This document shows positions 528 to 53,700 of a stretch of 64,000 nucleotides of DNA, piece by piece. The notes under the pieces were generated by a model. That model was not told the DNA's origin and made no database searches. It saw only the letters and a list, made by a program, of their open reading frames with translations. How positions within the stretch are numbered: the first letter of the stretch is position 1; each line of letters starts with the position of its first letter. Origin of the DNA: Naegleria gruberi (taxonomy: Eukaryota); NCBI GenBank assembly GCA_000004985.1, contig GG738912.1. One strand, given 5' to 3'. The translations under genes were made by a program, and so were the position numbers.

Positions 528-3500
528 TTAAACAGTCGATTTCAATTCATAATTTTGCGGAGCAGCATGTTCTTTACCCTTCTTTCTTCTGAGGACACAG
601 ACAATCAATCCAACAACAGCTACGATAATAAGAAGAACTGGAATAATTAACAAGATTAAGGCGATATAGTCCAAATTTGGAGTAGCTGGTGCAATTGGAG
701 TTGGGTTTTGAGTAGTGGTACTTGTTTCTGGTTGAACATCAGGAGTAGTAGATGAAGATATTCCAATAACATAGGAACCAGTTGAGTTAATAGAAACTAC
801 ATAAGAATCTGGGTTTGTACCAAGAATTGAGCAGGATGATGATTCGGTAATGGCTCCATTGACAACCATGTTACACTTTGGTTCTTGAAGAGCTCTGACA
901 CTTGAATTTGACTTTTCAATGGTCAATTGAGCAATTGATTTGCTGTATTGAATCAAGACATTGCTGTTATCAGTACTTGAAACCACAAAGTCAAAGATCT
1001 TTGAAGTGGACTTGAATGTAGTATTGCTATTTTCATAAACCTTCATTGAGATTTTAACACTGTCCAAGGAAGAAACTTGTGGAATTTCACTAAAAACTGA
1101 TGAGAGATTGAATGAAGTGATACCATTTTCAGCAACGCTTTCGAATAAACCATTCAATGAAGCAATATTTACCAATCTTACATATGAAAGTGATTTAATA
1201 CCAGATCCTCTAACAGCAGGCATATCAGGAACAACATTCTTCAACTTGATATTCATCAAGTTATTCTTAACTTGGTCAATCTTGTTCAAATCTTCAATTG
1301 TAAAGCTAGAAGCCATTAAACTTCTCTTTCCTCCCAAGCTAGTACTGACATAGCTTTGAATGGTTGATGCAGAATCAGTGGATGATTTAATTTCTTCATC
1401 AGACAATGAAATTGAACTTGATGATGAAGCTCCATTTGTTGCAGATTGGAATTTTTCAATAATCATTCTAATAGTTTCATCTGGTAAGTTGTCAACACAG
1501 GAACTAATTGATGAAATGACTGACAAGGTTGAAGATGTTGAAGTAGAGGTTTGACTACTCAACTTTTCTTCAGTTGCCTTTTGTTCAAAGAATGAAAGAA
1601 CAATTTGCTTACCAACTTCAGCCAATAGTTTCTTTTGTTCTGGATCATCTGTTTTAACAGATTGAATAACACTCAAGGCAGAGGAAACTGAAGATGTTGT
1701 CATTGTTCCACTTGAAGAACTTGTTAAAGCTGTAATGGCAGTTGAGGCATCCTTTGGCATACTTACTGAAACAGTTGTGGTTGTTTCAGATGAAGCACCC
1801 TTAGAATCAAAGACAACAACCTTAATTTCCAACTCACCAGCAGGGAGTGAGGTACCAAATGATCTAGTTTCAGATTTTTCTTTCAATAGTCTCCAATTAG
1901 TGTCTGTACTTGTCTTGGAGTAGAATGCAAATGATAGTGGAAGTTGTGGATCAGACCAACCATTACCACATGAAATCTTAAATTCATCAGATAGGGCAAT
2001 ACCACTCTTTGGAGATACTTCAAGAGTACCCACAGTTGGAGGAGAGTTAACAGTGAATGACAATGAAGCTTCACCACTCTTTTGACCATCAACAACCTTA
2101 ATAGTTAGGGTATAGGAAGCACCTGGTGCCAATAATGATTTTGGAATGACAATGTATTGCTTTGAAATGTCAACTGAAGAATCAAAAGTAAAATCACTTG
2201 AAGACCAAGTAAATAATCTGGCACTCGTTAAAGTATCCAAAGAAGTTGTTTGTAAAATTAAATCACTTGATGGATCGACGGCAACAAGATCAGCATCTTT
2301 TGGAGCAGAAATTGAAACTCTCAAAACAGTTGACTTGGATTGATCAGAAACAGTTACCTTAACAGAAGCAGTTGATGTACGAGTTGACTTGGTATAAGTG
2401 GCAGTGAAAGAATAAACACCTGGGGTCATTGTCTTAACCAATTTGAGTGTTGATTGATCAATATTTTGTGCACCATCAACAAAACCTTCACAAGTTGAAG
2501 CAGTATCAATGTTTGAACATGAAATTGAGACTTCTCCACCAGCTTCAGTTGGATTACTTGGATCTTGTTTAGAAATTGTGAAACTAACTGGATCTTCAAA
2601 TGATTGAGTCATATCACGAATATTGAAAGCAACTTTCAATGGTAAAGCAGTTGCTGTAACCTTAAAAGTAACTGATGCTTCTGGTGAATTATCTTCCTTG
2701 GCAGTTAATTTAAAGACATATTCTCCTTCTTGAGTCAATTGAGTATATTCATTACTAAATACTAAAAGTTCATTCTTTTGTTTGAGAATTAAAGGACTTC
2801 CACTTTCCAATGAGTAGGTATAAACCAAGTTACCACTTCCCTTATAACATGATGGGAAAGTTACAATTGGTGAAATAATATATGGACTTCCAATAACCAT
2901 TGAACTTTCCAAACCATTCTTAATTGAAATAGTTGGAGGAGTAGCAGCAATAACACTAAATGTAACAGAGGCAACTGATTCCTTGAGAGAAAATGAACTC
3001 TTAACAGTCACTTGAACGACATAGGTTCCAACATCCAAATCAGATGCTGAAAATTTAACACCAGGAGTTGACAGTTTTGAAATGATTGAATCTAAAACTT
3101 CAGTACTTGAAGGAGCCAAAGTTGTTGTCCATGAATAAATCAAAGATCTACGATCCAAACTTGAAGAACCAGATGCATCCAAATAAATAGAACCACATGC
3201 CTTTGAAATAGTGGACTTGTCAGCAATCAAAACAGCAACTGGATCAACAGCCTTATAGCTCATTTGTGCTACAGTAACATAGGTGGTCAATTCACTATCA
3301 AAATATTTCTTGACATTCAAAGTTCCACCAATGGTAATTGATGAAGAGATACCCAAGGTAATAGTCAATAAACTCTTTTCACCATTCAATGAGCAAACAG
3401 GATTAGTTCCCAAAACTTGTGAATTTGTAATCAATGAAGAACAGTCAATTCTCTTTCTCAAACTACTCATAACAGTAGCAGTGATGGAATCACCATTTTC

Positions 3501-3735
3501 AGAGAAACCAAATGAACTAGTATCAATACTAAAATCACACTTTTCACCAAACCAACCAGATTTACAAGTTTGACAATTGGCACCTTCTGCATTACCTGAA
3601 CATATGCATGATCCATCATTTGAACAAGTTCCCTTTCTATTACAAGTAGTTTCGGCAGAACATTGATATTGACATTGATCACCAACATAGCCATCAATAC
3701 AACGTTCACAGAATGGACCAGTAAACTTATCAGAA
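528..3735 (-). CDS. Giant gene, 3' portion: laminin-type EGF-like modules, PKD/REJ-like repeats, Ser/Thr-rich stalk, single TM helix, short cytoplasmic tail ending -KSTV
   Basis: The frame is open from the gap edge (…SDKFTGPFCERCIDGYVGDQCQYQCS…) through the 528..3470 ORF. Motifs such as GSIYLDASGSSSLDRRSLIYSWTT resemble PKD/REJ domains (LDAS.S.D......Y.W). The hydrophobic segment IALILLIIPVLLIIVAVVGLIVCVL is followed by RRKKGKEHAAPQNYELKSTV and then the stop. Confidence 0.65.
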
Positions 3736-6700
3736 NNNNNNNNNNNNNNNNNNNNNNNNNNNNNNNNNNNNNNNNNNNNNNNNNNTCTAATATCCTTATC
3801 AATGTAATTTCAAACACTCTTACACAATCTAGTTTCAGGAGTTGATGGAGAGTTACAAGATTGAATGACAGAATAGCAAGCAAGTCTTGCATTTGACTCT
3901 TCACATGTAGAATTACAAACTGTACCTTGTCCTTGAATCTTTACAATATTTGAATCATAGAGAGATTTAGCAGACTTGTCAAGTTGACTCATGGCATTAG
4001 TAATCAATTGTCTAGCATCAGTTGCATTGGCAGCTCCAGATGAGTAATGAGTATTCAATACCTTAAAGTTTTGAAGATGTGTTTTACAGAATGAAAGTCC
4101 AGAAGGTGGAATAGGAACACATGAGGCAGCTGGTGTATAAATAGTACAATCATCTCCAGTAAATTCAGGTGGACATACTTTAACACAGTTTCCTTGAGCA
4201 TTCTTTACATATCCGGAAATACATGAACCACATGGATTTGTAGCGAGTTCAGTAACATACTTTTCTTGACATTTACAATAACCTTGATAACCAGTGGTGT
4301 CCTTGTAGACACATTGTCCATATTGACCACATCCATCAGCACAATCAGCTGGTAAACGAATACAATTACCATTTTCATTATTGAAACCAAATGGACATAC
4401 ACAAACACCTTTTTGTAAAATAAATCCAGTCTTACACGAGCTACACAAGTCTCCAACAAATAAATCGCTTGTACATTGACACTTGGCAATACCAGTTGAG
4501 TTGAGACAAACACCTCCATTCAAACAAGTAAGTTTACAAGCAACTTCTGGTTGACCAGGAGCAGTTTCACACAATGAACCAGAATAACCATTAATGCATG
4601 AACAAAATTCCTTATTGGAAGCATCAAATTTACACAATCCTCCATTCAAACATTGCTTTGAACAAATTTTCTTTTCACACAAATCACCTTCATAACCAGA
4701 ATTACAATTACATTTAGCAATACCAGTAGAGTTGGCACATTGACCACTGACACATTTCAAGGTGCAAGGATTTGGAATCTTCTTTTCACACAAATCACCT
4801 TCAAATCCTGAATTACAAGTACATTTAGATACACCATTGACATTGTCACATCGTCCGTAAACACATAGTAAATTACATGATTGTTTTTCACACAAATCGC
4901 CTTCAAAACCATTGTTACACATACATCTGGCTGTTCCTGTTGTGTTTGAACAAAGACCATTGACACATTTCAAGGTACATGGATTTGGAATCTTCTTTTC
5001 ACATAAATCACCTTCAAATCCTGTATTACAATTACATTTGGCAATACCAGTTGTATTTGAACATTGTCCACTTACACATTTCAATGTACATGGATTGGCT
5101 GATAGTTTTTCACACAAATCACCTTCGAATCCATAATTACAAACACACTTCATCACACCATTGACATTGGTGCATTGACCATTGACACACCTCAAAGTAC
5201 ATGGTGCAGTTGTTTGTTTTTCACATAGATCACCTTCATAACCAGTGTTACAAACACATTTAGCAATTCCAGTTGTGTTAGCACATTGACCATTGACACA
5301 TTTCAGTGTGCAAGGATTGGCTGATTGTTTTTCACATAAATCGCCTTCAAACCCTGGACTACAAATACACTTCATCACACCATTAACATTTGAACATTGT
5401 CCATTGACGCATTGTAAAACACATGGTGTGGTGGATTGTTTTTCACACAAATCACCTTCATAACCAGTATTACAATTACATTTGGCAATTCCAGTTGTGT
5501 TAGTACATTGGCCATTGACACATTTCAAGGTACAAGGATTTGGAATCTTCTTTTCACATAAATCACCTTCAAATCCTGAATTACAATTACATTTCTGAAC
5601 TCCATTAACATTTGAACATTGACCATTAACACATTGTAAAGAACAAGGGGCATTGGATTGCTTTTCACACAAATCACCCTCATAACCAGCATTACAAATA
5701 CACTTTGGTGTTGCACCAGAACCAACACATTGACCATAAACACATGCCTTGCCACATGGTGATCTTTCTGGTACAGAACAAGTCTTTCCAGAATAACCAG
5801 TATTACAATTACAATAAGCTGGATTTTGATAAGAATCAGCAGTTCTCATCATGACAGCTTCATCTCCAATTAAGACACTAGTGCCAGAGGTACAAGTACT
5901 GTTAGTTTGAATTTGACAGAATTGACCTGTTTTACCAGAAGTACAAACACAACTACTTGTTCCATAGCTGCATTAAAGTAACTGAAACCAACATTGGTAC
6001 AATAATTATCATAATTGACGCAAGTTTTAGCATTGTAACGAGCAGTAACAGCAATACAGACTGGATTAGATGCTGGACAATCAAGACTAGTGGAACATTG
6101 TTCTTGGCATAATCCACTTCTACATTCAGAGTTATAATAACCCATTCCCAAACAATCAGCTTTAGTTTCACATAATCTGGCAACACATTTCTTTTGGTTA
6201 TTACAATATGGGGTCTTTGTGGAAGCTATTCCTTGACAATCAGCATCAGTTGCACATTGTTCAACACATTTAGTGTTTGAGCATTTTGGTTTGTTTGGAT
6301 CTTTACAATCATTATTACTTGAGCATTCAGAATGACAAATCATTTGACTTGAATTTGTGGAAATTAAAGAAACAGAAAAACTTCTAGAGGATGCAACAAT
6401 ACAAGATGGATAATTTGGATTTGTACAATCAGAGTTTGAGGAACACTTTTGATATGAACATCCCTTATATCCAAGAAGTAAATCTTGGCAAACTTCATAT
6501 GCATTTCCACATTGAGAATTGTCAGTACATCCAGCTGAACACTTATTATTGATACAAATCTTTCCTGAAGAACAATGGGCTGAGGTGGTACATTCTGGTG
6601 CACACTTTTTAGCGACAACATCACATCTTGAATTCACTGGATCGTTACAAGTAATGGTTGGGGATACAAGATTGCATTCATAGAAACAAACAGTTTGATC

Positions 6701-9700
6701 TGAAGAATAAAAAGTTGAAGCACTCGAGCTCACTTTGCTATAAGGAATACAAGCACTATATGTTCCAAGATTTGCACATTCTGAGCTTGAAGAACACTTC
6801 TTATAGGCACAATCATATTGGTTAGAAGAGTCCTTATAACAAACTTTGTTAGTAGAGGCACACACATCCCTATCAGTAATTTGATCACAACTTGAGCAAG
6901 TTCCTGCATTACAGAACTTCTTATTACCATAACTAAAACAATCTGTATCACTTGCACATTGAGATGCGCAAGTTCCATATTTAGTATTACATACTGGATA
7001 TTTTGGATCTTTACAATTTGTATTGGATGTACATTCTGGAGAACAAACAGTTGCTGAAGTATTCAATGTCAATCCATTAATAATATATCCAAAAGTTGAT
7101 GCTGGTTTACAATATTTGAAGAGTAAACCCTTACAATCAGTATCAGCATTACAAAGTTTGTAATTACAAGATTTGCTTCCATCCAAATGAAGTGCACAAC
7201 CCTTAGTACCATCACAAAAACCATCACTTGTACATGGGGCACACTTGGTATTCACACAAAAGTTCTTTCCACATTGACTATTGGATGTACATTCTGGAGC
7301 ACAAACGTTTTTGGTACATTTGGATTTGAATGGATCTTTACATTGACTGTCAGATGTACATTCAATATCACATGTTCCCTTATTACAAATTGGATAGGAA
7401 GCTCCACAATCAGAGTTAGAGAAACAAGGTTTCAATTCACAATCACCAGTTGCATTACAATATGGTCTAAAAGCATCAGTACAAGAACTATTAGAGGTAC
7501 AGAATGGAACACATTCTTTCCAAGAAGTACATTTGTGTTTGTTATAGGTTGAACTACAATCAGCACTTGTTGAACATTCATTCAATTTGACACGACACTT
7601 GTTAGTGGAAGTATCACAAGCACTTGTACTATTACAATGACTATCAAGTGTACATTCTGGTGAACAAACACCTGATCTACATCTTGGTTTGGCAGCAGTT
7701 GAACAATCGCTATCGATATCACATTCAGGTTTACAATAGCCAGATCTACAATATGAGTTAGGACTAGTAGATCCACAATCCATTGCAGAGGTACATGCCT
7801 TATATGAACAATCACCAGTGGTGGTATTACAAGTTGGGAAAGCATAATTCGTGTTGCAGTCAAAATTGGTAGCACAATTGGCAACACACTTATTTCCTGA
7901 ACATTTGTGTCTATTCGCAGTACCACTAAAAACTCCAAGTTAAAAATGAAATATTTCACAAACTTACCTGCAATCAGAATTTTCATTACATTCAAAGGTA
8001 CAAATCTTTTCACTTTGAGAGAGTATACTTTCATCATAAATATTGAATTTGCTTGCTGGGAAACATCCTCTACCTGAAGGACATTCACTAGTGGATGAAC
8101 ATTTCTGATATGTACACAACGTATATCCAGATGGAGTAATACCACAATAGTCCTTATTTGGTAATCCACCTGTACAGTCTGCTGTTGTTTTACAGTTGGC
8201 ACATGTTCCTCCAATGCATTTAGAATAACGGAAATTAATATTAGTTATGCAATCAGAATCTTGTGAACATGGACTAGATGCAACACATTTAGCTCCAAGA
8301 TTGGTATTATTCTTTACACATAATTGCTTTTCAACTGATTTACAGTCATCACCCATGCATTCCTGTTACAATTTTGTTACAATCAAAAATGTTGAAAAGA
8401 TTCTTAAAACTTACACCATAGCAATGAGTTCCAATGCATGAACTGAACCAAGGATTAGTACAAGTAACATTGGCATCACAATAATTGGTACATCTTCCAT
8501 CAACACAAGCTGTTTTATCGTCATCTCTTCCAGAACATTGACTGTGTGTTTCACATTCTTTTTACAAATTTAGAATAAAAAATCAAAAAGAAAACATACC
8601 TGATTTACACAAACCATCCGAACAACGTGTAAAAGCTCCCCAAGTACAATCAGCTGCAGAAGAACATGTTTTAAGTGCACAATCATTAGAGGTGGCGTTA
8701 CAAATTGGATGACTTCCAATAGGACAATCAGAATCTGATTGACAATTTTGAACACATTTTCTACCTGCACATTTGTGCTTGTTTAAAGTTCCACTATATA
8801 TATGATTTTCAGGAAAATATTCCTATAACACTGAACTTACCTGCAATCAGCATCAGTTTCACAATTATAATCCAAGCAAACTCTTGTTTCTGGATCTTCA
8901 AAATCATTAATACTAAAGTCTGTTGCCTTCCAACATTTCTTCTCTCCTGGACAATCACTAGATGATGAGCATCTTTGATAGGTACAAGCAGTGATACCAT
9001 CATCAGTCAATCCACAATAATACTTGTCATTATTTGGACAATCTGAATTTTGTAAACAGTAAGCACATGTACTATTCATACACTTTGAATAAATCCAGTG
9101 ATAATCATTTGATGAACCGCATTGGGAATCTGATGAACATGCAGAACCTAAAAAAGTAATAAATTATTAGTATTTTAATATAAAAAAACATACCTGGAAC
9201 ACATAAATTACCACCATTAGTACTATTATGATAACATTTTGGCTTTTGAAGTGATTTACAATCATTTCCAGTTGAGCAAGACTATTTTCAGTAATTAATA
9301 TAAATGTAATAGTTATTCAAAACTTACAGGGAAACAATAATTACTCAAACATTTACCGAACCAAGGATCAGTACATGGTTGATCATCACTACAATAGTTA
9401 GTACACTTGTTATCCATACAGACATGTTTACCATCTGTCTTATCTTTACAATCAGCATTGGATGTACATTCTATTACAATGATTAAGTATTACTGAAAAT
9501 TACAAAATGTTAAACTTACCATAAGAACAAACTGAATTAACACACAATGAATTTCTATTTCCAAGAGGTGAACATTCATCATTGGATGTACATGATTGAG
9601 CAACACAAATACCACCATCAGTTGTCTTTGCATTTGCTGGTCTTTGACATTTACCTTTTCCTGGCATGGAACATTCCAAATCCTTGGTACATTCTAAAAA

Positions 9701-12700
9701 GGCATTAAATTATAAACATTCTACAAGTTAAAACTTACCATGACGACACATTCCATTCACACAATGAGGGAAATAACCTTCTCCATAAGATTTACAACTC
9801 TCATCACTTGTACATGTTTGTGTAATACATTTAAATTTAGAAGCATCACACCTTTGAGTACCTGGTCTTCCACTACAATGAAAATCAGTAGAACATTCTC
9901 CATTACATCTATTATTATCACACATTGGACTCCAATTGAATCCCAAACAACCATAATCACCAAGACATACTTTTTCTTTACAAGAATAATTTGATAAATC
10001 ACAAGATGGTCTAGTTGGGGAGGTACAATTGGTGTCAGCAATACATTCCTTACCACAATTCATCAGGCCAGTTAGAGGACTTGTCATACATGCACCGAAT
10101 TTTGAAGGACAATCATCATTGGATTCACAAATATCATTCAAGTTATAAGTTGCACATTCATATCCATTCTTGGCCATGCAAACATTAAATGTTCCATAAC
10201 AATCATTATCAACAAGACAAGCTGTTGCACATTTTCCAGATTTACAATACTTATTGGCTCCATCTTGAGGACAATCACTATCTTGACTACATGTTCTTTC
10301 AACACAGACATTATTTTCACAAATTGGTTTGCCAGGAGTATTAGAACAATGAGAATCAGTTTCACATTCAATGGCACAAACTTTAGAATTTCCATACATG
10401 GTAGAATAGGGAGTTACTCTACAGCCCTTTGTGGAAGCAGGACAATCTTTACCATATTTACACATAGTAGGAACACACATATTCAATGTAGTATTACAAG
10501 TTGGGGTATCCAAATATGAACTACAATCAGATGAGGAAGCACAAGGTGGATACATGGCCTTACATTGAGAATTAATACAATACTTATTGACACCATTTTG
10601 TGGACAATCCTTATCAGCTGAGCATGATTTAGCAACACAAGTATTTGAAGAACAAGTTGGTTTTCCATTAACATTCTTACAATTGGCATCTTCTGTACAT
10701 TCCACCTTTGAACAATAACTTGTTCCATTCAATGGCAAGAATGAACAATATTTGTAAGAAGTAGAGCTGCATTCAGATGAAACGATGCATGGCTTTGGTA
10801 CACATGCTCCATTTTTGTTACAATATGGTTTACCAGGTACTGATTCACATTCAGAATCAACACTACATTCAACATTATCACAAGTTGATCTAACACAATA
10901 TGGATAAACAGGATTTGTACAGTTAGAAGAGGTAGTACATGGTGTCTTTTCACATCTACTTCCCTTAGCTCCGTAATCAACACAAATTGGGAATCTAGCA
11001 GAAGTACAATCAGCATTTGAAGAACATGTCTTTTTACAAGTTCTATAACTTGTTGAGGAACTATCAGTGTCACATTTTCCAAATCTATATTCATTAGTAC
11101 AATCACTATCTGAAGCACATTCAAAGGCACAAACACCACTAGATCCACAGAAATACATACCATTGGTAGTACAAGTAGATACTGCATATGTATTGGCAGT
11201 AGAACAAGATACTGGTGAACAATAAGAAACTCCAGAAACTGATTGACAAAGCTTGTTGGCAGAGAAACCAGAACATGAACCACAAGGTCTCTTACAAGTT
11301 AATGAATTGGTACGAACCATTCCAGGTTTACAGGCACAATTATCTTTAGATTCACACCAACCAGCATCAACAGATCCACAAACTTCAGGATTATCTGATT
11401 TCATTGATCCACAAGTGGTAATATTACAACTGGATCCAGTGAAAGAGTTTGTACATGTACAAGTATCAGGTTTAGAACAAGTACCATGGCCACTACAAAC
11501 AAGTGAATTTGAAGCAGGGATACCAAAACAAGAAATTGCTTGACATTGACTTCCAGAATAACCACTTTGACATTTGCATGTATCCTTAGCGATACATTTA
11601 CCATGTCCACCACAAACAGATGTATCTAAATTGGAAGATCCAAAACAAGTTGTTTGTTCACAATTACTTCCATTGAAACCAGAATTACAGGTACAGTTAT
11701 CAAAACCAGAACAAACACCATTTCCACTACAAACTGTAGAATTGGTATTTGGAATTCCATTACAAGTTGTAAATTGACATTGATTTCCATTATGATTAGG
11801 AGTACATGAACATTTATCTAATGAATCACATGTACCATGTCCACTACAAACACTTGAATCATTTGCTACCTTATCAAAACACTTGAGTTGACAATCAGGA
11901 CAAATAACACCCTCACAATCAGCACCATTCAAACCAGTTCTACATTTACAAATACCACTTCCGACTTTTTTGGACTTGTCATAAATGAATGTACATTGAC
12001 CTCTTCCATTACAAACATCCAAAGCAGAAGAATACTTTCCATTACATTGAATTTCACATTTGTGATCAAAATCAATTCCAGGAATAGTACTAATGCAACT
12101 CTTTGGAGTGAGAATTTTGATCGAATTTGAGGATGAATGGACATACATGATAGATCCATCATCTAACAATACCATATCAGAGGCACCAGCCATCAAAGAT
12201 TTAACAGAACTATCAGTACTAAGATAACCCGTATCTTTAACAATTGTATAGAATGTAGTGAATGTCGGATCTGTAACAAATACTTGTTCTCTATCAGAAA
12301 CATAAACGATTGAACCTGCTGAAGCAAAAGTGAATGCTGGATAAATTTCACCAGCCCAAACGAGATCCAAAGTGTAAATTGAAATAACATTCTTCTTGAA
12401 AACATAGACATAGTCACCAGCAACAGCCACATTCAAAACAAACCTTGCACCAACATTACTCAAATCTCCAAGATAGTTACAACTTTTACCTTGATTGACA
12501 GCACTATGTTTACAAAGATATTCCTTATAGGAAGCAACTTGTATAGCATACATACTTTGTGTTTTTGAGCTGAAACCACCAAATGTCAATTCTCCCCAAA
12601 AACATGAAGAACCACAAGAGCTAGCGCTAGAACCATCTGAGCCAGCAGAAGAGGCACCACCAAATGAAATGACAACATTACCATTCTGAGCAATTTTCAA

Positions 12701-14053
12701 AAGGAAAGTTCTACCACCATCAGTTGCCATACAAAAGATTACATCATTATCATCAATAGAAAGTGTTCTTGGATAATATGGAGCAATATTTGCTACTGTT
12801 GTAATTATATTAGTCAACAAGTCAATCTTTCTAATTCTTTTACCATTTCCTTCAGCAATATACAAGTAATTACCCTTTTTGGCAATCTTTTTAATATTGT
12901 TAAAATAAGCAAATTTGTAAGAATCATAATCTCCAATATTTTCAACATCTCCACCAGCAATTTTAGTGAATGAAAGTAAATCAAGATCAACTAAATAAAC
13001 AGAAGAAGATTCAGCAACAATAAGAGTCTTGGAATTGAGTTGAGTTGCAGAGACAAGCTTTTTTTCAAAACTGAGCCATGTTGAAATAGTTCCACTATTT
13101 GCATCACCACTGAAAAGCTTAATATTGTTATTGGAAAGGAAATACTTTTTAGAGTTTACAGTGAAATAATTACTTAATGGACCACATTTAGAATTTGTAG
13201 CATCACCATCAACATCGTACACCTCACCATATGAACACCAAGCAATTAATTCAGCATCACTTGGGGAAGGTTGAGCAATCTTGTAAACACGTTTTTGTTT
13301 TGTCATACTATAATCACCATCTATCATAAAGTACATGGTCTCATCAGCATCAACAAAGAGTGAAATACCAATATAGTCCAAGCCATAAATCACATCTCCA
13401 GCAGTAGTCTTGATCAAGAGTGATTTCAATCCTTTATAAAGAATACCTCCAGATCCAGAATCCATGTTACTAGTGTCAGCTGTGTATAACTTTATCATTG
13501 AACTACCATCGATAGTAATCTTTTCAAACCAAAGTTGATAAGCAATAGAGTTTGTACCACTGACACGATTAACCATATCCCAGTGAGTAAAATAAATGTA
13601 GCCATTTCTGTAACTAATAGCCCTAATATTCGCATAAGTTCTAGAAATGTAGGTTGGTGTAAAGGAAAAAGTTGCACCAGTGGTCAAATCAATTCTTCCG
13701 ATAGAAGCTTTATCTGATTTAACATAGAAGAGGTACTTTTCACCACATGTCATATCTTTGGTAATTCCAGAAACATCAATAATCTTAACAAACTTGGATG
13801 GATTTACCATTTTATAAACAGAAGAATCAGTGACAACATAAATGGTCTCATTAATGTTACATGTTCCAATAATATTCTTGATAGGAACATCAAGACCATA
13901 TCCATCAGGGAATTTAACAGGACGAGAGTGTGAGCTCAAAAAATCCTTACTCTCAAACTCATAGAACGAGTAAGGTGTTGTTGCATGGACAAGGGCACAT
14001 GCCAGGAGTACTGTTAGAACAAGTACCCATAAAGAGTTTCGTTGTAGCTCCAT
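528..14053 (-). CDS. Giant multi-exon gene (~13.5 kb; estimated >4,000 aa) for a secreted type I membrane cysteine-rich adhesion/receptor-like protein
   Basis: ATG at 14053 is followed by signal peptide MELQRNSLWVLVLTVLLACALVHA. The large ORF blocks 9728..14053, 5870..7783, 3810..5852 and 528..3470 are all Cys-rich extracellular-type sequence without their own signal peptides. They are linked by about 8 short GTAAGT...YAG introns between 7926 and 9727 that keep the frame, e.g. ...CRHG|gtaagt...ag|ECTKDLECSMPGKGKC. The frame of 528..3470 stays open upstream into the N gap, and the frame of 3810..5852 ends at a GTAAGA donor 25 nt before the gap. A TM helix (IALILLIIPVLLIIVAVVGLIVCVL) and a 20-aa tail end at stop 528. 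Confidence 0.55.
3736..3785. other. Assembly gap (run of 50 N) inside an intron/exon boundary region of the giant gene
   Basis: Literal N characters 3736-3785. Confidence 0.99.
3810..5990 (-). CDS. Giant gene, internal exon: about 13 tandem 38-aa EGF-like repeats (..PCTLKCVNGQC.NTTGIAKC.CNTGYEGDLCEK..)
   Basis: The ORF 3810..5852 frame is open upstream to ~5985 (CSYGTSSCVCTSGKTGQFC...). Two alternating 38-aa repeat subtypes give a ~228-bp nucleotide tandem unit. A GTAAGA donor sits ~3820, immediately before the N gap. Confidence 0.6.
4650..5770 (-). repeat. Tandem array of ~228-bp units encoding alternating 38-aa EGF-like repeats
   Basis: Near-identical peptide repeats in the 3810..5852 translation. 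The same periodicity shows in the opposite-strand six-frame ORFs (e.g. 4912..5136 repeats HFKVHGFGIFFSHKSPSNP twice). Confidence 0.7.
5975..7925 (-). CDS. Giant gene, internal exon: tandem Cys-rich modules (C..C....DC...C)
   Basis: The ORF 5870..7783 frame stays open upstream of its Met to the acceptor at about 7925 (...S|GTANRHKCSGNKCVANC...). So the Met at 7783 is internal. About 20 copies of a ~30-aa six-Cys module. At ~5975 the frame breaks by 1 nt relative to the next block. Confidence 0.6.
9728..14053 (-). CDS. Giant gene, 5' exon: signal peptide, beta-propeller-like domain, EGF-like modules, CxxxxDC-type Cys-rich repeats
   Basis: A continuous 1,441-codon exon. Residues ~60-640 are beta-strand-rich with repeated YxxxD/G motifs. 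They are followed by 8 or more EGF-like modules (CSGHGTC..C.C..G..G..C, tenascin/Dictyostelium type) and then repeats of the form C....SDC...P.C....C. The exon ends at GTAAGT (9727), not at a genuine stop. Confidence 0.7.
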   Translation of the reverse strand: MELQRNSLWVLVLTVLLACALVHATTPYSFYEFESKDFLSSHSRPVKFPDGYGLDVPIKNIIGTCNINETIYVVTDSSVYKMVNPSKFVKIIDVSGITKDMTCGEKYLFYVKSDKASIGRIDLTTGATFSFTPTYISRTYANIRAISYRNGYIYFTHWDMVNRVSGTNSIAYQLWFEKITIDGSSMIKLYTADTSNMDSGSGGILYKGLKSLLIKTTAGDVIYGLDYIGISLFVDADETMYFMIDGDYSMTKQKRVYKIAQPSPSDAELIAWCSYGEVYDVDGDATNSKCGPLSNYFTVNSKKYFLSNNNIKLFSGDANSGTISTWLSFEKKLVSATQLNSKTLIVAESSSVYLVDLDLLSFTKIAGGDVENIGDYDSYKFAYFNNIKKIAKKGNYLYIAEGNGKRIRKIDLLTNIITTVANIAPYYPRTLSIDDNDVIFCMATDGGRTFLLKIAQNGNVVISFGGASSAGSDGSSASSCGSSCFWGELTFGGFSSKTQSMYAIQVASYKEYLCKHSAVNQGKSCNYLGDLSNVGARFVLNVAVAGDYVYVFKKNVISIYTLDLVWAGEIYPAFTFASAGSIVYVSDREQVFVTDPTFTTFYTIVKDTGYLSTDSSVKSLMAGASDMVLLDDGSIMYVHSSSNSIKILTPKSCISTIPGIDFDHKCEIQCNGKYSSALDVCNGRGQCTFIYDKSKKVGSGICKCRTGLNGADCEGVICPDCQLKCFDKVANDSSVCSGHGTCDSLDKCSCTPNHNGNQCQFTTCNGIPNTNSTVCSGNGVCSGFDNCTCNSGFNGSNCEQTTCFGSSNLDTSVCGGHGKCIAKDTCKCQSGYSGSQCQAISCFGIPASNSLVCSGHGTCSKPDTCTCTNSFTGSSCNITTCGSMKSDNPEVCGSVDAGWCESKDNCACKPGMVRTNSLTCKRPCGSCSGFSANKLCQSVSGVSYCSPVSCSTANTYAVSTCTTNGMYFCGSSGVCAFECASDSDCTNEYRFGKCDTDSSSTSYRTCKKTCSSNADCTSARFPICVDYGAKGSRCEKTPCTTSSNCTNPVYPYCVRSTCDNVECSVDSECESVPGKPYCNKNGACVPKPCIVSSECSSTSYKYCSFLPLNGTSYCSKVECTEDANCKNVNGKPTCSSNTCVAKSCSADKDCPQNGVNKYCINSQCKAMYPPCASSSDCSSYLDTPTCNTTLNMCVPTMCKYGKDCPASTKGCRVTPYSTMYGNSKVCAIECETDSHCSNTPGKPICENNVCVERTCSQDSDCPQDGANKYCKSGKCATACLVDNDCYGTFNVCMAKNGYECATYNLNDICESNDDCPSKFGACMTSPLTGLMNCGKECIADTNCTSPTRPSCDLSNYSCKEKVCLGDYGCLGFNWSPMCDNNRCNGECSTDFHCSGRPGTQRCDASKFKCITQTCTSDESCKSYGEGYFPHCVNGMCRHGKF

Positions 14054-44792: not shown

Positions 44793-47700
44793 TTACTTTT
44801 TATTGAGCAATGAAAGCGAGGATAAAAGGGCAACACCAGTTTTTCTTTCCTCTCCGTATTTGAATTGTCTAGTTACAAGGTTGAGTCGTTGATGGAATTG
44901 TGACTTGAGGACAGCTCGTTGTTTGGCAGTGAGGAATCTTCTTCCAATTGCTTGAATTGTTGTGGTAGATGATAAAGTTTGTTCAGAAAATTGAGTGGTC
45001 TGTTTTCTTGTAAAGGAACCTCGCAGCAAACCTTGGATAGTTTGTAAATTCTCATTCTTGATGCTTAATTCAACTCTCGTTCTTGATCCCTCAATTGCTG
45101 ATCGAATAGTGAACACCTTATCCGTTATACTCTTGAGTGATTTGGCTTGTTGAATTTGTCTGACTCGGGCTTGCAATAGCGAAATACTACTCAGAGCAAA
45201 TTCAAATTCATTCCTCTTATTGTGACACATAAAGAGAAGAGCGACAGTGTTAGATAACTCCTTCATATCAGTGAGACTCCCTCTCGTTTCATGACCATAA
45301 TACAAGCTCTGAAGATAGTTGGCAGAGTCAGAGACAGTTCTGAAATCTTCATTGACAAATCGTCCTCTAATAATACTCTGCAATGCGTTAATATATTGAA
45401 TGTTGGTATTAAGATCTCTGATTGCAATCTGTTGTTGCATGAGTGATTGAATGGATTCTGTGAGTATTTGCATTTTTTTGAATTCTTGTCTTGTTTGATT
45501 GGCTCTGTAGAGGGCAATGATCATATTTCTAGAATCGAGTAGAGAATCTCTGTCCTCATTAAAAGATCTTTTCACTAGGTTTGACCTGAAAAAGGTCTGA
45601 ATGACAATTAGTCCGCTCATTTTCATATCTCTTTGTTTGAGAGTTGTGAAAGTTCTCACCCTTGATTGAAAGATTTTCATATCTTTCTTTTTCTGATATG
45701 TTTTGAGAATGGTAGTCTTTCTTTCCAATAAGGATTGTAAAACAGTGGCCAGAGTGATAGACTTGCTAAAAGATCTTCTTGCAAGTTGCGATTTGAAGAG
45801 AGCTTGAATGATAGCAATATTTTCTCTGGTTTTTTCAATTCTTCTTTCTTCAGACATTCTATGGACAATAGATTGAATTGTTTTGATGGATTCGGTTGTG
45901 GTGGACGATTGTCTCCTGGTAGAAATTCCATGTAAGCGAGTTGTGACAATTTGAACTTTGGTCATAGAATTTGCATATTGTTTTCTAACTAGACTGGAAC
46001 TCATGAAGGTTGAAATTAAATCCATTTGAGAGGATATTCTTTCGAAAGTCTTCAATGCTAGTTGTTTTCTGCACAAGGACTGAATGTGAGTGAGAGAATT
46101 GATAACTTCTTCTCTACTGGTTCTCGCAGAATATCCTCTTGATGCAGCTTGGAGAGTACCAACACGTTGTAATTGATTTTCATGATTTTTCCTATCTGTA
46201 TTTCCTCTGGCAGCATTTTGAATTATAGTAATTGAATAGTATCTCCTTTCGTTTTGGTATTCTTGTTGAATTGAACGGCTTCTACAGACAGCTTGTAAAT
46301 TAAGAATATGCTTTTCGATACGTGATCTTGTGGAGAGTTGAATGAACCCCTTAGCAAATGATGTGAAAATCTGCAATCTCTCCTGTTCAAGGGTGGTTGC
46401 ATTTCTTTGACTTATGCCATTCCATAAAGATTGAAGTAAAATGACTTGATTGATAGAAGTAGCTTTTTCGTCTTTGGCTTGTTTTCTTCTTAATAGTGAT
46501 TGAAGAGCACTAACGTCTTGAATAGCTTCAGCATTTTCCCTACGTTTGTATTTACCTTGAAAAGCTGCTTGGATGGTGACTAAATCATGTTGAGCTCTTT
46601 CATAACCAGATCTCACAAGGACTCCTTTGGCAAGAGCATGTACATACTTGGTAAATGTTTGGAGTGCATGTATGTTTGATCTTTCCTTGTTTGCTCTCAC
46701 TAATGCTTGAATCATTTGAGTGGCATTCCTATCAATAGGAGAATAATTGTTCTTTTTAGATGATTTGTTTCTAATCAAAGCTTGCAAGACAATAATCTTG
46801 TTAAGGGTTTGATTTTTCAACATGTTGATATTTCTAGAATTAGCCAGTGCTTGTAGAGAAATTAAATCTGAAATGTGTTGCTTTCTGCTCTGTTCTTCAG
46901 CTTTTCTCCTTACCAATGCTTGCAATACTATGATACCAGAACAATCCATGTGAGTCGTGCTTCCTCTTAAAAAGGCTTGAATTATTGTTATATTTTCTAG
47001 TTGCTTTGATTCTATGTTTTGCATTGCAGAGGATCTACATCTAGCTTGTATTGCTAATACTGCATTCTTGGATATTTCAAACTCTGCTCTTGTAAATCTA
47101 TTTCTGATTAGTGACTGGATAATTTCAATATTGTTTAAGGAGTTTTTTACCAATAGTCTGGTCTTATTTCCTCTAAGGAAGGCACAAACCATTGAACTTG
47201 AACTAGTTTGTTTATCCAATTTCTTTTGTACTATTTTTGATCTTATTAATGATTCCAAAGTTTCCAATCTTTTCAAATCCAATTTCATCTTGGCAGCTTC
47301 AGATGATTTCCTAATAGTACTTTGAAGATTGGTAACAAATGCCATGCTGGTTTGAGCTAGTCTTCTTTCCATGCCTGATTGTATTAATGCATGAATAAGA
47401 TGAACACTCTCAATAGGGGATGCATGTTCAGTCCTTTCCTTGTGAGAAATTATTAAATTTTGTATCATGGAGACTGCTTCAAGTTGGTTAAGTTTGCTGG
47501 CAACTGTTGAGCTTGATCTAAAAGCAGATTGAATGGTAATAATTTGATTCTGCATGCGATTTCTACTAGTTCTTTCTGTATTACCTTGTAGCAAGGCATG
47601 CAATAGATTCACTCCACCTCTAATTTTTTGTTCATTAAACTTCCTGATAGTGGCTTGAGCAACAACCAACTTTTGAATATAAACCCTGCCATGGGAATTG

Positions 47701-50700
47701 TTCCTAACAATATGTCCTCTAATAAGAGCTTGCAAACTTGAAATTCGCTGCTTTTCACTCTCCAAACTAGCAGACACAAGGTTGGATCTTGCTGCTGATT
47801 GTATAATTTGAATTTGTTCCATCAATTTAAGCTTGACTTCTCTTTCTATGCATCCTTGGTTTAGTGTTTGAACAATTGTGGCAACATCTCTAAAAGCAGA
47901 CATTTGGAGCTTTTCAACCAGAGATTTTCCAAGTGATTGAAAGGTCAAAATAGCATCTTTTTGTCTACCATCGTTGACCCTTGTAAAGTGGCCAACTACA
48001 GCGCTTTGTATTATCTTGGTATTTCTGATTGCCTTCTCGGTTTCCCTACATTTCAAGAATCTCCTGACCAAAGATTGCATTATTTCCACCAAGTCCCTTG
48101 TTAAGTAAAAGGTTTGCCTTAATGATCTACCTTTAAAAAAAGATGCAAGGGTATTACTATCCTCAAAACGGTTCCTTACCAGAGCTGACTGTAACAAGGT
48201 TGAAATAATATCTATTTTGGACTTTTCTTGTTCCGCTAATCGCCTTGTGTTGAATGACCTAGCACTCAATGAAAGGATAGAAATCATGTCCAAATGAGCT
48301 TGTTTGCTTGTCATTACATGTTTTCCTCTGATTGCACTCTGAATTACAAGCACTTTGGTTAATTGATACATGTCCACATGGTTATTTCCACGTCCTCTGA
48401 AGAAGGCCTGAATATTAGTGATACTATCATGTACATGTGAAAAATTCTTCCTTTCCAAATATCCTCTAATGAGAGCTTGCTGAGTGTTGATGTGGTTTTT
48501 GGTAGGTTGTAGATTTTTTCTCTCATCTCTTCCTCTCATGCTAGATTGCAAATTGATGATGTAAATTGTGTACTGTTCATGTTGTGCACGTAGCGTGTGA
48601 GAAAGAATGAGAGATTGTAAAATCTTGATGTTGTTGATGCATGTTTCCGATTGTTTTCTATTGATGTATGCTCTTCCGAATGTTTCAACTAAAAGAGAAG
48701 AGTCAATCAAGTCCTGATGTTCCTTCAACTTTGCATGTCCTCTTACCACAGCTTGAACATATTTGGTGTTGTTTGAAAGGGTTGAAAGGTGAGCCTTTTC
48801 CAATTTGCTTCTTATACGAGCTTGTAAAGTTTTGATCTTGTTCAATTCATTGATGAAATCTCCTCTACAGAAAGAGGATTGTAAAAAACCTTGTACGATT
48901 TGAACATTTTCTACATTTTCAATAAATTTGTTCTCTGTCAATTGTCTTCGGGAAAGTGATTGAATAACAGTAACATATTCATTAACACTGCTTTCTATTT
49001 TCCTGGCTATAAAACCACGTACCGAAGCTTGAAGAGTCAAAATGTTATAGTGGTTATGTCTAAAGGATTTGATTTCATTCTTTTTACGAATGTTGGATTG
49101 CACCAACAATACGTTATTCATTTGTTTCTCTTGTTCTTGAGTTATTAAAAAGGTCTTGACTCTTGCCTGAAGAGTTATTATTAAACTCTTATTTTGTGAA
49201 AATTCCTTTCGTGCAAAGTTTCCAAATAAAACAGATTGGGTATTCACTAAATCTTCTCTTCTGGCAGATAAATCTTTTCTTGTGAGATAAGATCTAGCTG
49301 CAGTTTGAATCATTCTCAAGTTCGCAACACTGTTTCTAAACAAGCATCTTGTTTCGAATGTCCTTAAAAGTGCCTGAGTAAAACAGATTCTAATTAGTTC
49401 ATTCTTATGCTCCAAACGTTGCACATGACCTTTCATGAGAGAACCTAATATATTTGAGCTTTCAGTTGTGTGTTTAACAAGTTGATTTTCAATTTTTCCT
49501 TGATATAATGTTTGAATTTGATGGGCCAAATTAATTTTAACTTGAAAACCACGTCTAGTCTGTACGCCTCGCAGCCATGATTGTATAGTCGAAACCTTTC
49601 GTTGAGTTTGGTGCATCAATGAACGGTTTAGCTTCCCTGAGAAAGACGCTTGAATACTATTGATGGCATTAATTCGATGCTTCAAATCAATTCTTCCCAA
49701 ATGTCCCTTGATTGAATGCTGTAAAGTTTGAACAGCATTTTGCAAGGAATGCTTATTTACTTGCTCCAATGTGCCTCTTGCTCTTGACTGAATTAGATGG
49801 GCAGCATTTCTCGTATCATAAAATTTCATCTGTCCACTGTGGCCACGAGCCAAAGAGGTCAAGAGAAGTGCCTTATCTAAATCCGTGCAAGCTTGCGAAG
49901 CGGTATTAATGCTCCTTAATAGAGTTTGAAGAAGCAACACACCCTTTTTAAGATCTGTATATTCCTTCCTTCTTGCGACAGCGTCAATTAAAGTTTGTAG
50001 GACAAGCACGTCCGATTTATACCTTTGGACTACCTTTTGTTGTTCTAGTCCACGACCATTGGCTTGAAGAAGGGAAGCAACTTGCACATATTGAGATAGG
50101 TCCTTTCTTACAAATAAAGATCTTGAAACAGGTTGAACAAGGATAGCAACGTGTTTCTTCTTTTTAAAGTCTAGGAATACCTTTCTTGCACAACAAACAG
50201 ATTGAATTAAAGTGGATGCATTCAACGCTGAATCTTTGAATTTCTGAATCAATTTGGCTCTTATAAGCGATTGTACAAGTGTAATTCTATTACATTGTTC
50301 TTTAAAGGTTGTACGAGCATTGAAACCCCTGATTGCACTATCCATAATCAAACATTTTGAATTCAAAGATTTTCTGTTTCGGTATTCGATAAATCTTCTG
50401 GAAAGCGTTTGAATGGTAGTAATGTCATTGATTAGATGGTTCAAATTGGATTGGCATTGCTTGACCCTTATCAAGGTCTGTATTGCTTGGATATTAGAAA
50501 TTTCCTTAGAGGAGTCTTGTTTCAAAAGTATTCTCCTGATCAATGCCTGAAGTAATGGAATGGATTCACTAGTGGTTTGATATTTCTTTCTCTGATTGCA
50601 TCCTAGTATCGTAGATTGAATTACTTTGATATTTTCCATAGAAAGAGTAAAGCATTTAGCTTGTTGTCCAGCTCTGAATAATCCTTGGATTACTACAGCA

Positions 50701-53700
50701 GAGTCCAAACTTGTTGTGAGATTAGTTCTTTCCAATCTTCCAACTAATGCTGCATTGAATAGATGAGCCAAATTTCGGAGCAATTGCAGGTTTTTCCTAC
50801 TAACATTAGAAGACATCATAGCTTGCAAAACCTCAATTGAGGAGGAGAAGATTACCATTTCCTGCCTGTCAGAAGAACCCTTGATGGATGCTTGCAGAGT
50901 GAGTAAAAAATTCTCCAATTGGCTCACTTCCTTCATTGCTGCTCTTCCTCTAACAAGACTTTGAAGCAATATTATCCTACTTGTCAAAACCGAACGAGAA
51001 TGTTTAACTGATAATGCCTTGGAAAGAGCTGTAAATATTTCGGATCTATCCAATTCGAATCTATAAATTTGTCCTTCTCCTTTGCCTCTGCAAAAGCTTT
51101 GCATTATCTGTATGGCTTCCTTCTTCGATTGTAAATCTTTTTGCTTATGATGTCTCCTTACAAGTGACTGTAAAGTAATGATTTGTTGAATATTGTGTCT
51201 TGTGAAGGAGACTAATAATCTAGACCTTGAAATAGACTGAAGAATTACAATTTGTTGAATATTCTTTGCAAAACAACCTCTTTCAAGTTTTGATCTGGAG
51301 AGCGATTGAATACATTCCAAGTTCAACTTGTTAGAATTGAAATCTTCTTGTTGGTATCTTCTTCTGTGCCAAGTTTGAACGGTGAGAGCAGTAACCCTCA
51401 TCAGATTGAATGTCTCTCTGATTCTATTAGACTCGCACAACACTGCAATGTTTGAAAGGGCTTGAGTCCTGAACACCTCAAAGGCAAAGAGTGAACAAAC
51501 TCTAATTAACTCTGCATCCTCGACAAGTCTTTGGTCTTCCATGATTTCGTCCTCCTCTCCAAAATAAGGTCTCATTCTCGGTATTTCACAATTGTCAGGA
51601 TAGCAATCATAATTAAATCTAACTACAGCCTCCATGAACTCGATAATGAAAAGTGGAATATACTTGAAATCAAGTGGGAATAGCCGTATTTCGTTCAAGT
51701 ATGGGAAGAGTTGTACTTGAACCCATATCAACAAAAGGGGAACCGTAGATTTTGCATCTTCTTCTACCACCTCATCTACCTTTTTGCTTGTTGTCGAATA
51801 GTAATGTTCATTCATTTTGGTGAGAACGGATTTAAGTTTTTCTCCATCATAGTGAACCAGTAGAGCTTCGTGGAAAATGTGTGAGAGAGGGTGTTCATCT
51901 CCAATTTTCATCAATGACTTGTAATTTTCCACATACTTTTCTGCATCTTCGATTGATATCTTTTCAGAAATCAAGTCAACTATACCTCTAACATTATCAC
52001 CTCTAGGATCTAATTTTTCAATTTCCTTTCTCAAAATTGCTGGGGTTAGTTTGGATTTAATCTTATCCAAAGAAGTAGGTTCCTCTGGGAATTGTATTCC
52101 TTCTTCATCTGAAATTTTTTCAATTTCCGATTGGTCTGATGATGACTCTCTGCCATGTCTCTTCAGTGGAGGTTCTTCATAATTTGCCAGAGATTCTAAG
52201 GATGTAACCTTAGCCATATCAGTGGATGTTGGTGTTGAAGGAGTTTTTGCCTTTTTGGCAAACTTGTTGAAAAAACTTTTGATTTTTTCACTTTTTGTCT
52301 TTTTTCTTTCTAATAGTTGACTACTTGTCAATGCTATTTGCGTATTACTATATGTTGATTCATCATCATCAAGTGTATCCAAACTCTGTCCTACAGAACG
52401 GCTGAAATTATTGTTTCTTGCTGGTGCTGATGCAACAGAAAATGCAGTGAAATTACTGTGAGAAGAAATTGTATCAAAAAGATCATCCCTTTCCACAGAT
52501 CCCTTCCCATCCATTAGACTGATTTTAAATGATTTGGATATATTCATGGCTTGAGATCTTCTGACTGGACTCTTTGGAGTTGTTGAGCCAGAAGCTTTTT
52601 CAGCCAGCTCTGAAAAATTGACACCCTTTCTTCTTTTCTGAGACAAATCTTTGTGTACTCCATTAAATTCTGTCAACTTGACTAGAACTTCACTCACCTC
52701 ACTATTAACATGAGAATGGGTTGTGGTTGTACTTATTTGAGAGGCAAAGGTGTGAGTATATTGTGAATATTGAGATTCTTCTGGTGATACAGGTGTTGCT
52801 GTTTCCTTCTTTTTTCTTTTTAATTTTGTAATTATGGAAGGCAACTTTCCTAGTAGAGATTTTGATCTTCCTTTCGTGGTTTCCTTTGTTATTGGAACTA
52901 CTATAGAGGGAACAACAACTAGAGGTCCTTGAAAATTATTGTTTGCTGATGCTGATGTATTACTGGTACCAGTATGATTAGGTGTATTTCCACTAGAAAT
53001 ATCCGATGTATTCATATCATCAAAATCATTGTCAGATTCATTCTCCTCTCCTTGCATATCATTCTCTGTAATATCATCAAATGATGCTCCATACACTCTA
53101 TTGCCATGTTGAACATTTTGAGTTGATGGTGTAATGCTGGATGCACTTGGTGGTGGTGAGGGTCTTCCTCTTGGTGAAAATTCATTCCTTGGAGAACGAC
53201 CATTTGGCATGATTGACCTAGGTGATAATAAGTTACCTCCTCTCGGAGTGTATAAATTGTGAGCTAGTGAATGTGATCGATGTGTACGACCACCACTCTT
53301 GGATGAAGATGTTGTAGATGCAAGTGAACTCTTATTTGAATTATTTCTAAATCTACCAACAGGTCTATTCTGTACAGGTGGTTTACTAATTACTATGGCT
53401 ACAGGTGTGGAGGAATTAATTGATGGTGAATTATCGCTATTATTGTTGGTTTGTTTACTCGATGTTACTAAATTATTCGAATAGATTATTACTCCTCCTC
53501 CATTAGTTGAAGAAGTACTTGTTCCATTCTGATTATTAGGTATTTGTCTATAGAAGGAAGAAGATGAATGTAGGGATGTATTGCTATTATTGTTACTATT
53601 ATTGAAAAGGGATGCTGGATTGGAATTTTGAATGGCAGAAAGTTTTAACTGGGGAATGACAGCAGGTACTCTTTTCGAGGAAGTAGAAGAGAAGGTAGAT

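Follow-up and report, generated by a model that had tools for sequence, protein, structure and literature searches.

The subject of this analysis is a 64,000-nucleotide (nt) stretch of the Naegleria gruberi NEG-M genome (contig GG738912.1), hereafter the window, and in particular a ~13.5-kb locus on its minus strand. The window as a whole is AT-rich (~35% GC) and its genes are densely packed. A preliminary description of the locus, made from the sequence alone, listed four large open reading frames (ORFs) at 9728..14053, 5870..7783, 3810..5852, and 528..3470, and all four are present at these positions. Read from 14053 to 528, they present as a single gene, with a signal peptide at its start and a membrane helix plus tail at its end. 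It had been proposed that this one locus encodes one giant type I membrane protein, which is also the reading that best accommodates our results: the joined model has a single signal peptide and a single helix, an epidermal growth factor (EGF)-like module is split between two of the frames, and the two flanks of a scaffold gap match consecutive parts of the same homologues. We consider it highly probable that the four pieces constitute one gene, whether or not that gene is intact.

The spliced model comprises ~4,370 visible residues, 415 of which are cysteines (9.5%), in agreement with the description of all four ORFs as encoding extracellular-type cysteine-rich modules. A hydropathy scan of the joined model revealed two hydrophobic segments only, the N-terminal signal peptide MELQRNSLWVLVLTVLLACALVHA and the membrane helix near the C-terminus, and thus the signal peptide is indeed confined to the first piece and the transmembrane segment to the last. 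Exon 1 extends from the ATG at 14053 as an open frame of 4,315 nt. The first ORF also contains an alternative in-frame ATG at 14182, from which the signal peptide would be buried. Outside of two lesions described below, the ~13 kb coding frame is unbroken at 35% GC. Adding the ~270 to 290 amino acids (aa) hidden by the gap to the visible residues, we infer a full-length protein of ~4,640 aa. The gene would have at least nine exons.

We also searched for existing annotations of the locus. An exact-sequence lookup of 10 window ORFs identified five of them as N. gruberi NEG-M proteins, such as NAEGRDRAFT_74217 (cryptochrome DASH) and NAEGRDRAFT_74221, all of them encoded outside of the locus. The three big locus ORFs included in this lookup had no match as such in the collection, which contains the N. 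gruberi proteome. Similarly, no identical or near-identical protein was found for the N-terminal 689 aa, the C-terminal 1,068 aa, or an 890-aa query from the middle of the model in a database that includes the same proteome. Therefore, the locus appears to lack a gene model in the public N. gruberi gene set, probably as a consequence of the frameshift, the in-frame TGA, and the gap. The features of the locus are collected in Table 1.

Table 1. Features of the locus in their order along the coding strand (window positions).
Feature	Position	Strand	Basis
Start ATG (14053) and 24-aa signal peptide MELQRNSLWVLVLTVLLACALVHA	13982..14053	-	Translation; hydropathy
N-terminal all-beta domain (~660 aa) including NHL-type beta-propeller	11990..13981	-	
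Teneurin-type EGF block, ~6-7 modules	11204..11989	-	Pfam EGF_Teneurin E 3.8e-11, EGF_2 E 4.2e-7; motif count
Four-cysteine module array, first part (end of exon 1)	9739..11119	-	Segmentation by C-x5-C-x(5-10)-C-x(3-10)-C, unit ~25 aa
Seven short exons and eight introns, coding four-cysteine modules	7926..9738	-	Exon chaining; intron table; donor-motif enrichment
Short exons	9693-9520, 9470-9328, 9281-9194, 9147-8841, 8793-8600, 8557-8415, 8362-7968	-	
Introns	9738-9694, 9519-9471, 9327-9282, 9193-9148, 8840-8794, 8599-8558, 8414-8363, 7967-7926	-	
Rest of module array, running into first half of an EGF module	5973..7925	-	Open frame
Frame change inside EGF module, one base apparently missing (tttaa[n]tgcagc)	5970..5977	-	Sequence; no canonical intron fits
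~13 EGF modules, including a tandem array of 111-nt period	4563..5972	-	Pfam EGF_TEN E 4.2e-32
Frizzled-like cysteine-rich domain (tentative), truncated by gap	3786..4139	-	Marginal profile matches
In-frame TGA at cysteine codon invariant in five aligning homologues	3810..3812	-	Alignments; 25 nt from gap edge
50-N scaffold gap, hiding ~270-290 aa (~0.85 kb) of teneurin-type EGF modules	3736..3785	.	Homologue spacing
Laminin-type EGF modules	3537..3734	-	Pfam EGF_laminin E 0.0046, EGF_LMN_ATRN E 0.0077, both below threshold
Ig-like beta-domain array, PKD-like plus REJ	1755..3527	-	
GAIN-like juxtamembrane domain: seven helices, then beta-sandwich; degenerate GPS-like motif	762..1748	-	
Ser/Thr/Pro-rich stalk, membrane helix (671-594), 21-aa tail LRRKKGKEHAAPQNYELKSTV, TAA stop (530-528)	528..761	-	Translation; hydropathy

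Intron structure and tandem duplication within the module array

Between the first two large ORFs, the coding sequence is divided into short exons encoding four-cysteine modules. The preliminary description counted eight mini-exons between 7926 and 9727, separated by 40-55-nt GTAAGT introns and spliced in frame at each junction. By exon chaining, the count of eight applies to the bounding introns, whereas the internal short exons number seven. The introns are 42-52 nt long with 11-26% GC and all eight end in AG, which agrees with the size range proposed, but the GTAAGT donor is found in only six of them, the other two having GTATGT. Every intron either contains an in-frame stop codon or is of a length not divisible by three, and in all eight cases splicing restores both the frame and the cysteine-module pattern, as the in-frame junctions of the earlier account would have it. 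Of the 19 GTA[AT]GT donor motifs that the coding strand of the locus contains over its 13.5 kb, eight fall exactly at the frame breaks.

This region also contains a tandem duplication of ~870 nt (~290 codons), in which block 9470-8600 and block 8557-7690 are 59% identical. Two intron positions are common to both blocks. Copy 2 lacks the third intron (9193-9148) exactly and reads through in frame. The exact absence of this intron from a paralogous copy constitutes independent internal evidence that it is real. Because it occurs in one copy only, its gain or loss would postdate the duplication.

A frameshift, an in-frame stop codon, and a scaffold gap

The coding frame of the locus changes once at ~5973, where the upstream frame extends 100 nt (5873-5972) over the downstream one before reaching its stop at 5872-5870. 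The end of the upstream frame (...KTC-VNYDNY-C-TNVGFSYF) provides cysteines 1-2 of an EGF module and the start of the downstream frame (C-SYGTSS-C-V-C-TSGKTGQF-C) provides cysteines 3-6, such that a single added base (tttaa[n]tgc) yields a complete six-cysteine EGF of the form C-x6-C-x10-C-x6-C-x-C-x8-C. A splice junction had been placed at this position. However, we enumerated every GT..AG pair of suitable length across 5873-6060, and none has a GTA[AT]GT donor, while each of them removes EGF cysteines. Since the two halves join into a whole EGF through one base and no canonical splice connects them, the frame change is best described as a 1-nt frameshift within a domain. A metagenome scan with the junction DNA, either with or without the extra base, returned no match. 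When the upstream frame is read past the shift (5873-5971), it produces the hydrophobic tail AAMEQVVVFVLLVKQVNSVKFKLTVLVPLALVS, which is an out-of-frame EGF but might be taken for the membrane anchor or glycosylphosphatidylinositol (GPI) signal of a separate upstream gene.

The remaining two interruptions were examined against a set of Naegleria homologues, which consists of five N. gruberi proteins (P0038-P0042, being NAEGRDRAFT_60003, NAEGRDRAFT_74497, NAEGRDRAFT_76453, EFC43684, and EFC50603), one from N. fowleri (P0043, CAG4717792), and one from N. lovaniensis (P0044, C9374_000695). The in-frame TGA at 3812-3810 occupies the position of a cysteine that is invariant in the five homologues aligning here, as CKSV[TGA]NYI in the locus corresponds to CKNTCAFI, CKSVCEQV, CLSTCKAI, CLDACKAI, and CKQTCIDI in these five. 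Beyond the TGA, the frame stays open for eight more codons up to the gap and retains an Ile conserved in the family. The frame of the 3810..5852 ORF was previously thought to end at a GTAAGA splice donor, but the GTAAGA at 3823-3818 is coding, as it specifies the conserved CKS of LCKSVC, and the frame stops at the TGA instead. On the other side of the gap, the frame of the 528..3470 ORF is open up to the gap edge at 3735, as had been noted. The gap flanks match consecutive parts of the seven homologues with 39-51% identity. In P0042, the alignment with the last residues ahead of the gap ends at position 537 and that with the first residues beyond it starts at position 815, and P0040, P0041, P0043, and P0044 have the same spacing. 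From this constant spacing, it follows that the 50 Ns conceal ~0.85 kb of EGF-coding sequence.

Domain composition of the predicted protein

From its N-terminus, the protein would consist of the signal peptide, an NHL-type propeller, teneurin-type EGFs, ~58 four-cysteine modules, ~13 EGFs, a Frizzled-like domain, the gap-hidden EGFs, laminin-type EGFs, PKD/REJ domains, a GAIN-like domain, a Ser/Thr/Pro stalk, the membrane helix, and a short basic tail. Several elements of this order had already been recognized, as the beta-propeller-like domain corresponds to the NHL-type propeller, the EGF-like modules to the teneurin-type EGFs detected by Pfam and to the ~13-module array, and the PKD/REJ-like repeats to Pfam matches described below. 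The best match to the N-terminal region, P0002, was considered as a possible Naegleria protein and rejected, as it looks like a bacterial lipoprotein of NHL repeats and its match covers only ~90 residues. An exhaustive search with aa 1-1200 collected 2,165 matches drawn by the teneurin-type EGF block and, being swamped by these EGF matches, contained nothing for the NHL domain or the modules.

Segmentation of the four-cysteine array identified ~58 contiguous modules across aa 979-2560 (~1,600 aa), in place of the approximately 40 CxxxxDC modules estimated before. Each has four invariant cysteines, and 53 of them contain C-x4-[DENQSH]-C. No Pfam family scored above threshold on the array, the best being the Dumpy DPY module (PF21164; E 1.3e-3, 19 bits versus a cut-off of 27), and a module profile compared with PDB returned only marginal matches to small disulfide-rich peptides (best E 0.01). 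The 890-aa query runs from the final ~560 aa of the array through the frameshift junction into the first EGFs. It retrieved one unrelated EGF protein, whose listed domains were EGF-type only. BLAST of the whole array against 151 proteins taken from the exhaustive search also retrieved nothing.

In the EGF array that follows, Tandem Repeats Finder reported 9.4 copies of a 111-nt unit at 4671-5702, and the signature CxCNxG[FY]EGDLCE is present 11 times. The segment from 5972 to 3813 ends in a region that aligns with P0040-P0044 (E 4e-38 to 3e-20) with its cysteines conserved. A profile of six family sequences matched cysteine-rich domains in PDB at marginal values throughout (ROR2 E 0.004, MuSK E 0.04, Frizzled-6 E 0.45), and the Pfam Fz model scored only E 0.17 on this region; we tentatively suggest that a module resembling the Frizzled-type cysteine-rich domain is conserved in this Naegleria family. 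The Pfam values for the laminin-type EGF modules are below threshold; this region is conserved across all homologues.

The membrane-proximal half contains a Pfam REJ match (PF02010) with E 2.6e-38 and 132 bits versus a cut-off of 25, accompanied by a K319L-type PKD domain (E 1.2e-9). In the post-REJ region, GAIN or GPS was not detected at the sequence level in either Pfam or PDB. The GPS-like motif there has neither the CxC nor the His-Leu-Thr, and autoproteolysis would be unlikely because the cleavage triad is absent. A 30-aa stalk rich in Ser, Thr, and Pro separates the GAIN-like domain from the membrane, and the predicted helix comprises residues 1022-1047 of the C-terminal segment. The tail is short and basic and ends in KSTV, which fits the class I PDZ-ligand pattern proposed for it; however, it is 21 rather than 20 aa long and its ending is conserved in no paralogue, the paralogue tails ending in REI, QGV, LTA, and LSI.

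Relatives within Naegleria

The C-terminal ~1,750 aa are collinear with P0038-P0044 and the last 1,068 aa are 39-51% identical to them. With this 1,068-aa segment as the query, the five N. gruberi paralogues were matched at E = 0 to 6.6e-270 and the N. fowleri and N. lovaniensis proteins at ~1e-198, with query coverage of 93-100%. The collinear similarity extends over the laminin-EGF, PKD/REJ, helical-plus-sandwich, and membrane-anchor regions. The family alignment has 115 invariant columns, and the homologues have in common with the window protein the Frizzled-like domain, REJ, the helical-plus-sandwich domain, and the degenerate GPS-like motif. Judged by this similarity, the C-terminal ~1,750 aa belong to a Naegleria EGF/Fz-like/REJ family. 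In contrast, none of the seven homologues contains the NHL domain or the four-cysteine array. In the N. fowleri and N. lovaniensis proteins, a signal peptide stands directly ahead of the EGFs. All five N. gruberi paralogue models start within cysteine-rich modules and have no signal peptide, which suggests that these models are probably truncated at their 5' ends. A metagenome scan for further relatives of the family produced laminin-EGF matches only.

The extreme C-termini also differ among species. Those of the homologues from N. fowleri and N. lovaniensis consist of a hydrophobic segment resembling a GPI-anchor signal, with no cytoplasmic tail, while in the N. gruberi copies a membrane helix is followed by a basic tail. 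Separately, EFC50603 (P0042, XP_002683347) carries the depositor label 'basal body protein', for which we found no basis; the label might reflect induction during flagellate differentiation.

Two annotated N. gruberi proteins, NAEGRDRAFT_53247 (4,502 aa) and NAEGRDRAFT_51207 (4,968 aa), indicate that such size and build are not exceptional in this species. Judging from our reading of the sequences, both resemble the window protein in having teneurin-type EGF arrays and one C-terminal membrane segment followed by a short tail. On the same reading, both also have a REJ-like membrane-proximal region, and NAEGRDRAFT_53247 additionally has NHL-type repeats and a GPS-like Cys motif. However, BLAST (E < 1e-4) detected no similarity of either protein to the N-terminal domain, the array, the Frizzled-like domain, or the post-REJ region of the window protein, and both are absent among the eight best listed matches of its REJ segment. 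These two proteins are architectural analogues and not orthologues.

Comparison with known families of extracellular proteins

The locus had been likened to teneurin/tenascin-like or Sib-like proteins, but its product belongs to none of these groups. Close to the membrane, the protein combines PKD/REJ with a GAIN-like domain, and this half is a cassette of the polycystin-1/suREJ kind. In suREJ1, polycystin-1, and PKDREJ, REJ is followed by a GAIN-type domain just outside the membrane, as it is by the GAIN-like domain in the window protein, and suREJ1 also has EGF modules and a single membrane helix. As differences from this group, Pfam and hydropathy revealed no C-type lectin, PLAT, or 11-helix channel-like region in the window protein, its GPS-like motif lacks the CxC and His-Leu-Thr, and it has the 30-aa stalk before the membrane. 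Membership in the polycystin-1 (PKD1) family itself was rejected despite the presence of REJ, given one helix, a 21-aa tail, and no PLAT or PKD_channel match in Pfam. Nor is the protein an adhesion G protein-coupled receptor, as its GAIN-like fold is combined with a single membrane helix in place of a seven-helix membrane domain.

Dumpy of Drosophila is a gigantic membrane-anchored extracellular protein with hundreds of tiny disulfide modules in EGF-DPY-EGF arrays, and DPY is the only Pfam model that responded to the window modules, albeit below threshold. A Dumpy-type protein was nevertheless rejected, as the window modules are contiguous rather than interleaved with EGFs and no ZP domain was present in Pfam scans. 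Teneurins share teneurin-type EGF repeats and an NHL propeller with the window protein, which differs from them in being type I instead of type II and in having its propeller N-terminal to the EGFs; Pfam scans across the whole model identified no YD-shell, TTR, or toxin-like domain. The protein is likewise not a Sib protein of the Dictyostelium type, since no Pfam scan contained VWA and the tail LRRKKGKEHAAPQNYELKSTV has no NPxY. A survey of Naegleria also reported no Sib orthologues and described its adhesion factors as "mysterious" and largely unknown (PMC8296547).

Overall, the window protein is a new, unannotated member of a known Naegleria surface-protein class, in which the only possibly new element is the four-cysteine array.

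Alternative interpretations of the locus

We place the chances that the locus is one intact gene for a type I surface glycoprotein, interrupted by draft-assembly errors, at about even. Both the frameshift and the TGA, which is 25 nt from a contig end, would then be single-base defects of the draft. Several observations count against this reading. As assembled, the frame is broken twice and intactness is assumed, and the frameshift is 2.2 kb distant from the gap, at a point where errors of a Sanger draft are less expected. No identical or near-identical protein was found in a collection with the N. gruberi proteome and public-run assemblies, and hence no sign of a transcript or of an independent assembly. 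Our searches found no relatives of the N-terminal domain or the module array in Naegleria, and each homologue from N. fowleri and N. lovaniensis is a complete, stand-alone gene of ~1,700 aa whose upstream neighbors are unrelated glycosyltransferase-like genes. Given that both homologues are complete and begin with a signal peptide, the N-terminal 2,570 aa would represent an addition that is not ancestral to the family. Furthermore, any function ascribed to the protein would derive entirely from its domain content. Some of the same facts could signify that the gene is the same and its lesions are real, i.e. that the assembly has captured a recent pseudogene or a null allele within an expanding surface-protein family. 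We regard this as possible, if rather doubtful. Two independent disabling lesions in one gene, the missing gene model, the lack of a matching protein among predictions from other public assemblies, and the existence of at least five further N. gruberi paralogues, which makes the loss of one copy plausible, are all consistent with decay. However, just two lesions are present in ~13.1 kb of coding sequence, the splice sites of all eight introns are canonical, the cysteine patterns are intact, and one of the lesions sits where base calls are poorest, next to the contig end.

It seems quite improbable that the locus comprises two adjacent genes, one for a secreted NHL/EGF/module protein (14053..5870, ending in ...AAMEQVVVFVLLVKQVNSVKFKLTVLVPLALVS) and one for an EGF-REJ-membrane protein beginning at an ATG at 5852. 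The stand-alone genes of the two sister species do resemble the downstream part, the upstream frame reaches a stop of its own, and no annotated family member carries anything related to the upstream part. However, the downstream ORF would start mid-EGF (MMRTADSYQ...) with no signal peptide even though all of its domains are extracellular, whereas the N. fowleri and N. lovaniensis proteins do possess signal peptides; the N. gruberi paralogue models that also have none are suggestive of truncation rather than true starts. In addition, the two frames overlap by 100 nt with zero intergenic space and the EGF halves on either side of the shift are complementary. A scaffold misjoin at the gap, with 528..3735 originating from another paralogous locus, is very improbable: this is a multi-copy family with paralogues that are 46-50% identical and the gap is the very place where ~0.85 kb of repetitive EGF-coding sequence is lacking, but the two flanks share a strand and follow each other as the homologues predict, five homologues agree on the length that is absent, and no homologous segment is duplicated or overlapping across the flanks. 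Recoding, either of the TGA as selenocysteine or by a programmed -1 frameshift at ~5973, is scarcely credible. A TGA opposite a cysteine in homologues is a classical selenoprotein signature; however, the protein is extracellular with 415 structural cysteines, of which this site is one, and no selenocysteine insertion sequence (SECIS)-like element was detected between positions 1 and 1200 of the window, an interval that takes in sequence downstream of the stop codon. Nor does c ttt aat g conform to the X XXY YYZ pattern of a slippery heptamer, and slipping by -1 there would bring a TAA into the A site. With neither a SECIS-like match nor a slippery heptamer, recoding is unlikely, and the TGA is more likely a base-call error or a point mutation than a selenocysteine codon.

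Implications

If the locus does encode one intact receptor, its domains suggest that it probably has an adhesion or mechanosensory role. The distal propeller and the Frizzled-like domain would bind ligands, the long disulfide-stapled arrays of EGFs and modules would form an extended stalk, and force or binding would be coupled to the membrane through the PKD/REJ plus GAIN-like cassette, in the manner of polycystin-1/suREJ-type proteins. A further, rather unlikely synthesis is that the array is an undescribed extracellular module family that was expanded by an intron-carrying duplication and grafted onto an older EGF-REJ-GAIN receptor, which would create an independently arisen, Dumpy-like, membrane-tethered elastic fiber in a heterolobosean.

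The locus would add a missing gene of ~13.5 kb to the N. gruberi reference gene set, and giant surface proteins of the EGF/REJ/GAIN-like type would be concrete candidates for the poorly understood adhesion and surface sensing of Naegleria. The presence of a PKD/REJ plus GAIN-like cassette and a Frizzled-like domain in a heterolobosean would also bear upon the early origin of receptor modules considered "metazoan". Current views are not overturned by these results; the protein, large as it is, would be an ordinary representative of a known class.

Elsewhere in the window, an unbroken ORF of 3,160 codons is located at 44793-54275 on the minus strand. The C-terminal two thirds of its product are composed of degenerate ~23-aa repeats rich in IQ/LQ..R, which resemble IQ motifs.

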